From Escherichia coli (lineage in GTDB: Bacteria > Pseudomonadota > Gammaproteobacteria > Enterobacterales > Enterobacteriaceae): a stretch of DNA of 3,892 nt. The DNA is taken from NCBI RefSeq assembly GCF_003334815.1, contig NZ_QOWO01000079.1, one strand, 5' to 3'. How positions within the stretch are numbered: position 1 is the stretch's first letter; each line of letters starts with the position of its first letter. Shown here piece after piece: positions 1 through 3,892 of the stretch. Made by a program: the position numbers and the translations under genes. The notes beneath the pieces are model-generated. The model was given only the letters and a program-made list of their open reading frames with translations, had not been told where the DNA came from and did not search any database.

Positions 1-95
1 ATCGACGATTGCTGGAAAGGCTGGGCCATACTCCTCCGGCAGAAGCAGAAAAAGCTTATTATGCTTCCATCGGAAACGATGATCTGGCAGCCTGA
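1..95 (+). CDS. IS3-family transposase OrfB, C-terminal ~30 codons (5'-partial, continues upstream of window)
   Basis: Open frame from the window edge to TGA at 93-95; sequence ...LGHTPPAEAEKAYYASIGNDDLAA is typical of the end of the IS3-family integrase core. Confidence 0.75.
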   Translation, partial: RRLLERLGHTPPAEAEKAYYASIGNDDLAA

Positions 96-137
96 GTTCA
101 CAGATAAAACACTCTCCAGGAAACCCGGGGCGGTTCA
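1..137 (+). mobile_element. Right-end fragment of an IS3-family insertion sequence (IS629/IS1203-like); the element body lies upstream of the window
   Basis: Frame 3 (nt 3-95) translates to RRLLERLGHTPPAEAEKAYYASIGNDDLAA-stop, which matches the conserved C-terminus of IS3-family OrfB as I recall it. It is followed by a terminal inverted repeat ending ...CCCGGGGCGGTTCA at nt 137, consistent with IS3-family TG...CA termini. The 137 nt are the exact reverse complement of 3756-3892. Specific IS name is from memory, not a search. Confidence 0.8.
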
Positions 138-662
138 GAGAGTATGCTGCTCGACAAATGCTTCCGGGGTGAGAGCAACCCGCCGTTCAGGTCGTTTGCC
201 ACCATGAAAGAGTTTTTCCGGATCACCATCTGCCAGTACAGGGGCGATAGCAGGGGACAACGAAGCAAAGATGTGTGGCAGGCGGGTAATATCTACTGGT
301 CTGCGGGTGAAACGACTTTGTCCCGGATGTTGATACCACTCCCACAAACACCAGAGTGTCACAGGTAAGAGGTACATCCACAGAATACCTATGGTCTGCT
401 CCATGACGTTAACCCACTGGCTATAGCTTATGTTGGCGGCGTTGTTACCGGTCATGGCAAGCAGGTTGTATCGTGGTGCTGCATAGTTATGAAATGGTCC
501 CCAGTCAACCAGTCCCCATAAGGTATGAAGAATCAGGCAGCTGGCGTAAACCACTTCCGGCAAGAATAACCATATAACGAATAGCAGCAGGATAAGAAGG
601 ACACCAACAGCGCCCCATATCTGCATAGGATCTTCTGCGACAGGCTGTCGATTGTAAGACAT
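135..662 (-). CDS. Hypothetical inner-membrane protein (two predicted TM helices), probably 3'-truncated by the IS3-family insertion
   Basis: 175-codon ORF with GGAG 8 nt upstream of the ATG at 662. Two hydrophobic stretches (IWGAVGVLLILLLFVIWLFL and TIGILWMYLLPVTLWCLW). Its stop codon TGA (135-137, minus strand) is the terminal three bases of the IS repeat, so the reading frame runs straight into the IS end. Confidence 0.55.
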   Translation of the reverse strand: MSYNRQPVAEDPMQIWGAVGVLLILLLFVIWLFLPEVVYASCLILHTLWGLVDWGPFHNYAAPRYNLLAMTGNNAANISYSQWVNVMEQTIGILWMYLLPVTLWCLWEWYQHPGQSRFTRRPVDITRLPHIFASLSPAIAPVLADGDPEKLFHGGKRPERRVALTPEAFVEQHTL

Positions 663-764
663 GACAAAGTCTCCATTTCTGGAATTTAAATCAAACGGAA
701 AGGTTAAAAATTTATTTGCAGGCGATAAGAGCTAACCAGAGGAATTAGCCGTGTGATAAAAGGA

Positions 765-792
765 TTGTTGCAGATACGAAAGTCGTTAGAAT
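765..792 (+). promoter_or_regulatory. Candidate sigma70 promoter of the hok/mok (pndA/pndC) mRNA
   Basis: -35-like TTGTTG (765-770), 16-bp spacer, -10 TAGAAT (787-792). It sits 7-8 nt upstream of GGGCGCTTGAGG (799-810), which resembles the conserved 5' end of hok-family mRNAs. Confidence 0.45.
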
Positions 793-842
793 AGCTGCGG
801 GCGCTTGAGGCTGTATGCCGAAAGCGTTTTGTGGACGGTATA

Positions 843-902
843 CAGCAGAAAGCCCCTGGAGATTTTTTTATCAATCAACCAAGGGCTCTACTGTAATGCT
901 TC
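843..902 (-). ncRNA. pndB: Candidate Sok/PndB antisense RNA (~60 nt) complementary to the mok translation-initiation region
   Basis: Minus-strand perfect -10 TATAAT (plus coords 909-914) places the start near 901-902. The transcript would cover the mok ATG (896-898) and its SD (881-885). A 9-bp stem (879-887 with 851-859, including one G-U pair) is followed by a U-rich tract (CUUUCUGCUGU). Boundaries are approximate. Confidence 0.5.
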
Positions 903-1429: not shown

Positions 1430-1484
1430 CGGATTTTCTCTCTGTATTTATGGGTAGTTATCGAACTGAATGTGCCAGTTTTTT

Positions 1485-1512
1485 GTAAGCGCATCATTTA
1501 AACCGTCTTTCG
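1485..1512 (+). repeat. Putative IS66-family left terminal inverted repeat
   Basis: GTAAGCGCATCATTTAAACCGTCTTTCG begins with the GTAAGCG motif. The matching right repeat is absent from the window, so the extent is a guess. Confidence 0.4.
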
Positions 1513-1569
1513 CCTCCCTTTCCTGTTTCCGATACTAATGTCCATTTCCGCAGTAAAAGGACATTTAAG

Positions 1570-2220
1570 ATGAATGCACGAAAGGCGGTACTGGCAGATA
1601 ATCCGGAATTGATCCTGCGTGTGCTACAACTGAGATTTGACGAGTCACTGTCGTACCCGCGCATTTCTGCGCAGACTGGTGTCAGCAAAACCGCCATTTT
1701 TTCTCTGGTGAGGCGATTTCACCAGGTATTCACTGACTGGCCTCTTTCCGGTGAATATTCCTGCGGGCAACTGGCCCGGGCTCTTTTCCCGGGGCGATAT
1801 CCTTCAACCCCGACCGTGACTCAGCCTGTGAAAGCAGAGAAACCCCGCCGGAACCGATTTTCACCGGAGTTTAAATGGAGACTTGTTCAGCAGACTCTTT
1901 TACCCGGTGCCTGTGTCGCACAAATAGCTCGTGAGAACGGAATCAACGATAACCTGCTCTTTAACTGGCGGCATCTCTGGCGTAACGGCGGCCTGCAGCC
2001 GCCCGGCGAACATGAAACATCGCTACTTCCCGTGACGTTAACTCCGGAGCCGGATAATAAAATCCCGGCACCAGTGCAGATACCTGAACAGATAAATACA
2101 CTGCCAGACAGTCTGTGCTGTGAGCTGGTTCTGCCGGCCGGAACTCTCAGGCTGAAAGGTGAACTGACGCCGGCGTTATTACAGACACTTATCCGCGAAA
2201 TGAAAGGGAGCAGCCACTGA
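1570..2220 (+). CDS. tnpA: IS66-family accessory protein TnpA (OrfA), 216 aa including an N-terminal extension
   Basis: The C-terminal half (KPRRNRFSPEFKWRLVQQTLLPGACVAQIARENGINDNLLFNWRHLW) is the canonical IS66 OrfA helix-turn-helix region. AAGGA lies 8 nt before the ATG. The stop overlaps the tnpB start (TGATG). Confidence 0.8.
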   Translation: MNARKAVLADNPELILRVLQLRFDESLSYPRISAQTGVSKTAIFSLVRRFHQVFTDWPLSGEYSCGQLARALFPGRYPSTPTVTQPVKAEKPRRNRFSPEFKWRLVQQTLLPGACVAQIARENGINDNLLFNWRHLWRNGGLQPPGEHETSLLPVTLTPEPDNKIPAPVQIPEQINTLPDSLCCELVLPAGTLRLKGELTPALLQTLIREMKGSSH

Positions 2221-2729
2221 TGATATCTCTCCCTGCCGGTTCGCGTATCTGGCTGGTTGCCGGTATCACCGATATGCGAAATGGTTTTAACGGCCTGGCA
2301 TCAAAAATTCAGAACGTCCTGAAGGATGACCCGTTCTCCGGGCATCTGTTCATCTTTCGCGGACGCCGGGGTGACCAGATAAAAGTGTTGTGGGCTGACA
2401 GCGACGGACTGTGCCTCTTCACCAAACGCCTGGAACGGGGCCGCTTCGTCTGGCCGGTCACCCGCGATGGAAAGGTGCACCTTACTCCGGCTCAGTTGTC
2501 CATGCTTCTCGAGGGCATCAACTGGAAGCACCCGAAACGAACAGAACGGCGCTGGAATCCGCATATAACCCGTTGTAAAGTGAGGATATGGACACCTCAC
2601 TTGCTCATGAGAATGCCCGCCTGCGGGCGCTGTTGCAGACGCAACAGGACACCATCCGCCAGATGGCCGAATATAACCGCCTGCTCTCACAGCGGGTGGC
2701 GGCTTATGCTTCCGAAATCAACCGGCTGA
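2220..2729 (+). CDS. tnpB: IS66-family TnpB (OrfB); 3' end probably frameshifted, so the open frame runs to 2729 instead of a native stop near 2566-2568
   Basis: MISLPAGSRIWLVAGITDMRNGFNGL...LFIFRGRRGDQIKVLWADSDGLCLFTKRLERGRF is classic IS66 Orf2. In the +1 frame a TAA at 2566-2568 would give a 115-aa product ending 19 nt before the tnpC ATG, which is the usual length and spacing. The observed frame instead overlaps tnpC by ~140 nt. Confidence 0.75.
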   Translation: MISLPAGSRIWLVAGITDMRNGFNGLASKIQNVLKDDPFSGHLFIFRGRRGDQIKVLWADSDGLCLFTKRLERGRFVWPVTRDGKVHLTPAQLSMLLEGINWKHPKRTERRWNPHITRCKVRIWTPHLLMRMPACGRCCRRNRTPSARWPNITACSHSGWRLMLPKSTG

Positions 2730-3758
2730 AGGCGCTGGTTGCAAAACTGCAGCGCATGCAGTTCGGTAAAAGCTCAGAAAAACTTCGCGCAAAAACCGAA
2801 CGACAGATACAGGAAGCACAGGAGCGAATCAGCGCACTTCAGGAAGAAATGGCGGAAACGCTGGGTGAGCAATATGACCCGGCACTGCCATCCGCCCTGC
2901 GCCAGTCTTCAGCCCGTAAACCGTTACCGGCCTCACTTCCCCGTGAAACCCGGGTCATCCGGCCGGAAGAGGAATGCTGTCCGGCCTGTGGTGGTGAACT
3001 CAGTCCACTGGGATGTGATGTGTCAGAGCAACTGGAGCTTATCAGCAGCGCCTTTAAGGTTATCGAAACACAACGTCCGAAACTGGCCTGTTGCCGTTGT
3101 GACCATATCGTGCAGGCGCCGGTGCCTTCAAAACCCATTGTACGCAGCTATGCCGGAGCGGGGCTTCTGGCCCATGTTGTCACCGGGAAATATGCAGACC
3201 ATCTGCCGTTATACCGCCAGTCAGAAATATACCGTCGTCAGGGCGTGGAGCTGAGTCGTGCCACGCTGGGGCGCTGAACTGCTGGAGCCACTGTATGACG
3301 TCCTGCGCCAGTATGTGCTGATGCCCGGTAAAGTCCATGCCGATGATATCCCCGTCCCGGTCCAGGAGCCGGGCAGCGGTAAAACCCGGACAGCCCGGCT
3401 GTGGGTCTACGTCCGTGATGACCGTAACGCCGGTTCACAGATGCCTGCGGCGGTCTGGTTCGCGTACAGCCCGGACCGGAAAGGCATCCATCCACAAAAT
3501 CACCTGGCCGGTTACAGCGGAGTGCTTCAGGCCGATGCTTACGGTGGCTACCGGGCGTTATACGAATCCGGCAGAATAACGGAAGCCGCGTGTATGGCCC
3601 ATGCCCGGAGAAAAATCCACGATGTGCATGCAAGAGCGCCAACCGATATCACCACGGAAGCCCTGCAGCGTATCGGTGAACTGTATGCCATCGAGGCAGA
3701 AGTCCGGGGATGTTCAGCAGAACAGCGTCTGGCAGCAAGAAAAGCCAGAGCTGCGTGA
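2588..3758 (+). pseudogene. tnpC: IS66-family transposase TnpC, disrupted: frame break near 3275 and 3' truncation at 3755
   Basis: The N-terminal part (2588-3277) has a coiled-coil region and a CxxC...CxxC zinc-finger motif (CPAC...CCRC). The central part continues in another frame (3258-3758; [24 protein letters not shown]...LQADAYGGY...). The frame ends at TGA 3756-3758, the first bases of the IS3-family repeat. The C-terminal region carrying the conserved glutamate is absent (recalled family feature). Confidence 0.85.
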
Positions 3759-3892
3759 ACCGCCCCGGGTTTCCTGGAGAGTGTTTTATCTGTGAACTCA
3801 GGCTGCCAGATCATCGTTTCCGATGGAAGCATAATAAGCTTTTTCTGCTTCTGCCGGAGGAGTATGGCCCAGCCTTTCCAGCAATCGTCGAT
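3756..3892 (-). mobile_element. Right-end fragment of a second, inverted IS3-family copy (IS629/IS1203-like); the element body lies downstream of the window
   Basis: Exact reverse complement of nt 1-137, with its terminal TGAACCGCCCCGGG... at the inner junction at 3756. Confidence 0.8.
3798..3892 (-). CDS. IS3-family transposase OrfB, C-terminal ~30 codons (5'-partial, continues beyond the window end)
   Basis: Mirror image of feature 1-95; same translation ending ...ASIGNDDLAA-stop on the minus strand. Confidence 0.75.
   Translation of the reverse strand, partial: RRLLERLGHTPPAEAEKAYYASIGNDDLAA

Follow-up and report, generated by a model that had tools for sequence, protein, structure and literature searches.

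We analyzed a 3,892-nucleotide (nt) stretch of Escherichia coli DNA (hereafter the window), in which two ends of one type of insertion sequence (IS), in inverted orientation, enclose a segment of an IncI1 plasmid. An exact-sequence look-up of the 175-amino-acid (aa) product of the open reading frame (ORF) at 135–662 showed that the window is the reverse complement of the entire 3,892-bp contig QOWO01000079.1 of assembly GCA_003334815.1; the same 3,892-bp contig is on record for two samples. Positions 1–137 and 3756–3892 are exact reverse complements, 100% complementary over 137 nt and with 3,618 nt between them, as had been described in a first-pass annotation of the window. Chance cannot be the source of perfect arms of this length. 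Between the arms lie, from left to right, the first part of the conjugal transfer gene trbA, a pnd locus, a conserved 83-aa gene, and the left part of a decayed IS66-family element.

Comparison with plasmid sequences revealed that window positions 138–3892 are identical and contiguous (3,755/3,755 nt) with positions 6001–9755 of L001, a segment of the E. coli ECOR 3 plasmid RCS85_pI (NZ_LT985321.1). RCS85_pI is an IncI1 conjugative plasmid of the MOBP/MPF_I type, which shares with the window the junction of an IS with the transposase gene tnpC, an extra G in tnpB, and a 17-bp deletion in tnpC. The two differ at the left side, where trbA is intact in RCS85_pI, whereas in the window the IS end follows codon 175 of this gene. 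Among 72,556 plasmids, the contiguous tnpC::IS junction was found only in NZ_LT985321.1, which places the window in the RCS85_pI lineage. Salmonella enterica serovar Chester is among the names attached to the 175-aa truncated TrbA product; at the DNA level, identity to the E. coli ECOR 3 plasmid is 100%.

Each arm is the right end of an IS629/IS1203-type element of the IS3 family, cut by the contig end, with one copy at 1–137 on the plus strand and a second copy, in the opposite orientation, at 3756–3892 on the minus strand. The left arm contains the C-terminus of OrfB (3–95), the stop codon (96–98), and the terminal inverted repeat (approximately 113–137), which ends in GGTTCA. Translation of positions 3–95 gives RRLLERLGHTPPAEAEKAYYASIGNDDLAA followed by the stop; these residues are identical to the C-terminal end of the 296-aa OrfB encoded by the full-length IS in the ECOR 3 plasmid. 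The 137-nt arm is 100% identical to L001 9755–9619 and 13643–13779, which belong to two identical 1,310-bp IS copies lying approximately 1.5 kb apart in opposite orientations. In the copy at L001 9619–10928, OrfA (108 aa, 10548–10874) and OrfB (9661–10551) overlap by 4 nt in −1 frames, and the OrfB protein scored 314.6 bits (cutoff 160) against the NCBIfam model NF033516, named "IS3 family transposase". The left and right inverted repeats (IRL and IRR) both start with TGAACCGCCCCGGG and are identical at 23 of their first 25 nt; IRR occupies positions 113–137 and 3756–3780 of the window, with the 5′-TGAACCGCCCCGGG termini at 137 (complement) and 3756 and thus facing inward. The first-pass annotation had proposed that the arms are IS3-family right ends consisting of an OrfB C-terminus and a terminal repeat, with termini directed inward, and these data support it on each point. 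The left arm also matched the second ECOR 3 IS over 142 nt, reaching 5 nt beyond the IS; we rejected this as a chance extension with a gap.

The IS is named here at the group level (IS629/IS1203-type), with no isoform assigned. The Prokaryotic Genome Annotation Pipeline (PGAP) labels close copies as "IS3-like element IS1203 family". IS1203 and IS3411 are isoforms of IS629, and IS629 duplicates 3–4 bp on insertion (PMC3271280). The ECOR 3 copy shares with this group its 1,310-bp length, the overlapping OrfA and OrfB, the TGAACCGCCCCGGG termini, and duplications of 3–4 bp, and no notable difference was seen, though the window contains only 137 nt of each copy. With a 201-nt query spanning the left junction (98 nt from the IS end, 103 nt from trbA), matching sequences were obtained in 4,200 of the 5,426 complete E. 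coli genomes, which suggests that this IS type is very widespread in the species. Since the same IS end is joined to two different unique sequences, at least two IS copies must be present in inverted orientation, as the first-pass annotation had stated.

The window being the whole contig, the sequence stops at positions 1 and 3892, and this is why the arms reach them. The value of 137 nt therefore tells how far the assembler advanced into a repeat, and is not the length of a biological element; the earlier description of the 137-bp bracket as a feature of defined length gives way to a contig-edge effect. In the proposed course of events, the assembler would have run 137 nt into the multicopy 1,310-bp IS on each side of a 3.6-kb IncI1 stretch and then stopped. 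Because both ends of the contig are inverted repeats, it formally resembles a small linear replicon or the genome of a virus with true inverted terminal repeats of 137 bp, and this resemblance is all that speaks for such an origin. Both arms lie within a 1,310-bp IS, the interior is plasmid backbone in which annotation and an NCBIfam search found no replication or structural genes, and no match was obtained in IMG/VR. This explanation, to which we attach practically no credence, is already refuted by NZ_LT985321.1, where the identical sequence runs on past both arms.

At the right junction, the ECOR 3 plasmid contains the full-length 1,310-bp IS (L001 9619–10928) within tnpC, flanked on both sides by GCG, a 3-bp target-site duplication. 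Removal of this IS together with one GCG recreates the uninterrupted sequence of CP024481 (287/287 nt), and the complete plasmid has the remaining 3′ part of tnpC immediately on the other side of this IS copy. Completeness of the IS, a flanking duplication, and the position of the rest of tnpC were the three points raised earlier about the flanks, and for the right side all three agree with a simple insertion in NZ_LT985321.1. The second ECOR 3 copy is flanked by a GGAG duplication, and its removal with one GGAG likewise recreates the CP024481 sequence (336/336 nt). Judged from these reconstructions, both ECOR 3 copies are simple insertions. Full-coverage matches to the right junction in plasmids of enterotoxigenic E. 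coli (ETEC) were rejected, as they consist of two separate pieces 287–700 bp apart and do not represent this junction. Between the two ECOR 3 copies lies a gene encoding a DUF6882 protein (L001 11643–12197, WP_001312357.1, 555 nt), and its counterpart in CP024481 differs (L002 9345–9872, WP_000182867.1, 528 nt).

These observations bear on the suggestion that the IS pair, with the 3.6 kb it encloses, constitutes a functional composite transposon that mobilizes the pnd (hok/sok) addiction module, the first-pass annotation having called the arrangement a composite-transposon-like unit. Two copies of one IS do flank the segment; compound transposons generally consist of paired, nearly identical IS copies, and the IS-flanked resistance transposons likewise bracket a DNA segment in this manner. 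In the citrate transposon Tn3411, the flanking IS is IS3411, an isoform of IS629. The right IS, however, has its own 3-bp duplication and thus inserted alone, and on either side of pnd the interior runs colinear with the IncI1 backbone. No record carrying both junctions was found in the five collections searched (the 5,426 complete E. coli genomes, PLSDB with its 72,556 plasmids, IMG/VR, the GTDB species representatives, and the JGI metagenomes), nor does the unit occur in them in any other context. These three observations contradict an origin of the structure as a composite transposon. The cargo would comprise a gene fragment, a dead IS66 element, and pnd, and both outer ends would be left ends (IRL). 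In contrast to compound transposons, the structure thus shows no duplication around the whole unit, no selectable cargo, and no sign of mobility as a unit. We consider a functional composite transposon extremely unlikely, and movement of the IS pair as a unit is unlikely to matter at present.

At the left junction, the ORF at 135–662 on the minus strand comprises the first 175 codons of trbA, whose intact product has 402 aa, and its stop codon TGA (135–137) is supplied by the IS terminus. Window positions 138–662 are 100% identical to the 5′ 525 nt of the trbA gene annotated in NZ_LT985321.1 (WP_000121273.1), and the 175-aa product has its own accession, RCR41863.1, under the name TrbA. What had been called a membrane protein in the first-pass annotation is thus identified as the IncI1 transfer protein TrbA. 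The proposal that both inward-facing genes end on the TGA of an IS terminus holds for this ORF and for the ORF at 3258–3758 on the plus strand, with the qualification that the latter is only a fragment of the tnpC pseudogene. Comparison of the sequences across the join revealed ...GGTTCA|GAGAGTATG in the window and ...GGTGAT|GAGAGTATG in the intact gene, which is present in both NZ_LT985321.1 and CP024481. Because the join falls exactly at the last base of the IS, we take it as a genuine transposition product and not as a chimeric join. On the sequence evidence, the simplest account of the left junction is a private insertion of another copy of this IS, in the orientation opposite to that of the tnpC copy. 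We infer that the left copy is full length, that it carries a target duplication, and that the 3′ part of trbA lies on its far side.

The window, a complete short-read contig, is very probably a stretch of an IncI1 plasmid of the pRCS85_pI lineage that is bounded by two independent IS insertions. IS3-family elements transpose by a copy-out-paste-in route via a circular intermediate (bioRxiv 10.1101/2023.06.07.543989), and two independent events of this kind would yield the two junctions. One IS entered the already defective tnpC of a resident ISCro1-like element, giving the junction with its GCG duplication that is present in the complete plasmid. A second IS, in the opposite orientation, would have entered trbA after codon 175; this junction is present in the window, and the full length of the IS and the 3′ part of trbA beyond it would follow from a simple insertion. 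Such an insertion predicts that the left end of the IS is joined to ...ATTGGTGAT(GAG) of trbA and, with a duplication of 3–4 bp, that a contig ends in ...ATCGAGCTGCATATTGGTGAT followed by GAG or GAGA and then TGAACCGCCCCGGGAATCC. Of the two origins offered in the first-pass annotation, two separate insertions or one insertion followed by rearrangement, the former is the better reading, with the right insertion demonstrated and the partner side of the left one deduced.

Several observations weigh against this reading. The left junction was not found in any of the five collections, so that its sole support is the present contig with its two samples, and the left IS copy is visible only as 137 nt. 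The closest complete plasmid, NZ_LT985321.1, carries an intact trbA. A DNA pattern search for the partner junction, in which the left end of the IS meets trbA codon 176, returned nothing from IMG/VR and the JGI metagenomes, the other contigs of the source assembly lying outside this search, and the predicted read-through product of that junction had no match in an exact look-up.

Part of the same evidence would also fit a left junction that is an assembly artefact or that represents a minority of the population, the true plasmid being pRCS85_pI with an intact trbA: the closest complete plasmid is trbA-intact and otherwise 100% identical over 3,755 nt, and the junction occurs in no other collection searched. 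Random chimeras, however, do not give a join exactly at the last base of an IS, a 137-nt extension by an assembler needs repeated read support, and the same contig is on record for two samples. An artefact or minority variant is therefore very unlikely.

A further possibility is that the left junction arose by an insertion followed by homologous recombination between IS copies (inversion or exchange), with the 3′ part of trbA lying beyond a different IS copy. Two identical inverted copies approximately 1.5 kb apart are already present in the ECOR 3 lineage, the IS is multicopy in most E. coli genomes, and homologous recombination between the paired inverted IS copies could invert the 3.6-kb segment. 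Both inversion isomers yield an identical contig, which consequently says nothing about inversion and does not contradict this explanation. No positive evidence for recombination emerged, the two ECOR 3 copies keep matching duplications and thus have undergone no exchange there, and in every such scenario the IS must first have transposed into trbA at this exact nucleotide. We regard IS–IS recombination at the left junction as unlikely, and two independent insertions remain our preferred interpretation.

Codon 175 of trbA looked like an insertion hotspot or the boundary of a mosaic, since unrelated samples contributed nine further contigs that end no more than 2 nt from the junction; where such contigs are longer, the bases of intact trbA continue. 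We rejected both ideas and attribute the pattern to background fragmentation of a gene that is very common in a very large collection. Control look-ups found 23 contigs ending in trbA at codon 165 and 8 at codon 185, compared with 22 at codon 175, and trbA alleles align straight across the codon-175 site in 1,926 of 2,021 plasmid records. Dozens of Logan, ENA, and NCBI contigs stop at arbitrary trbA codons, and exact look-ups of truncated proteins therefore yield mainly fragments from contig ends, which can mimic a shared breakpoint. In one contig (L007; GCA_007326155.1, AAHQKC010000068.1), a gene at 263–1354 for a 363-aa product with an AcrVA2-like domain (PF26125) lies upstream of trbA in place of hok/pnd, and homology of this contig to the window stops at approximately 926.

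The interior on the right side consists of the left 2.27 kb of a decayed ISCro1-like element of the IS66 family (1485–3755, plus strand), which starts with GTAAGCG and is cut by the IS after 3755. Homology to IS66-free IncI1 contigs stops at 1484, directly before this start, and the PGAP name for the element is "ISCro1 family". The element contains an intact tnpA (1570–2220, plus strand; NF038385 TnpA, 283.8 bits), a tnpB starting at 2220 (plus strand; NF033819 TnpB, 126.4 bits), and a tnpC starting at 2588 (plus strand), both pieces of which match the IS66 transposase model NF033517. Relative to CP024481, the nearest uninterrupted copy, against which the indels were defined, tnpB is frameshifted near its end by an extra G at 2548/2549, and tnpC by a 17-bp deletion after 3272; the 17 bp lost sit between short GCTG(G/A)AC repeats. 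The indels in both genes are common to the ECOR 3 plasmid, which indicates that the IS66 element was defunct irrespective of the IS insertion; the two frameshifts and that insertion leave it non-functional. The frameshifted TnpB product had no record in an exact look-up, in which pseudogenes are not called. TnpA has 216 aa, with an N-terminal region of approximately 90 aa upstream of its NF047595 match (residues 93–210); the longer NF038385 model covers residues 12–198.

Between trbA and the IS66 element, a pnd (hok/sok-type) regulatory RNA region at 799–956 (plus strand) matched the Rfam model RF01794 (sok) over its full length (1–157) with 131.7 bits (gathering score 59; E = 4e-31). The overlapping gene at 954–1106 (plus strand) encodes a 50-aa, PndA-like toxin of the Hok/Gef family, annotated as WP_001303307.1; PF01848 was assigned to homologous gene calls, and the NF007290 HokA model gave 67.3 bits (E = 9e-19), below its curated cutoff of 89. 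The combination of a Hok/Gef toxin and an overlapping sok match identifies the pnd locus of IncI1 plasmids. Immediately downstream of the hok stop codon, positions 1111–1143 form a terminator-like hairpin with a 14-nt inverted repeat (86% complementary) and a 5-nt loop. The conserved hypothetical gene at 1178–1429 (minus strand) belongs to the IncI1 backbone; its 83-aa product, WP_001291965.1 in both NZ_LT985321.1 and CP024481, had no NCBIfam match, and the gene also stands beside hok in the IS66-free IncI1 contigs L004 and L005. The order of the 83-aa ORF, hok/pnd, and trbA is that of the R64-type trbABC-pnd region, as in the IS66-free IncI1 contigs. The window differs from this region in the ISCro1-like IS66 element upstream of the 83-aa ORF and in the truncated trbA.

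Precise excision of IS629 and IS1203v is strongly stimulated by the IEE protein together with the transposase. If such excision restored trbA, the insertion could act as a reversible off-switch for conjugation; we hold it most unlikely that the locus serves either in this way or as a compound transposon by which the IS pair mobilizes pnd. Surface conjugation of R64 depends on trbA (PMC10286972, citing Furuya and Komano 1996), and an I-complex plasmid with a trbA::Cm mutation is unable to conjugate (PMC10286972). With trbA cut at codon 175 and likely polarity on trbB and trbC, loss of self-transfer is expected, and the trbA::IS plasmid is probably unable to transfer itself.

The feature analyzed here is ordinary and of a kind already known: in a short-read assembly, two copies of a common IS have collapsed, and the unique plasmid segment that lies between them forms the contig. 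Caution is in order with contigs whose ends are perfect inverted repeats, as they can be mistaken for composite transposons or for genomes with terminal repeats. With the insertion in trbA, an IncI1 plasmid of the ECOR 3 lineage would have gained a further IS629/IS1203-type insertion, which is unsurprising in itself and of local interest for plasmid epidemiology.

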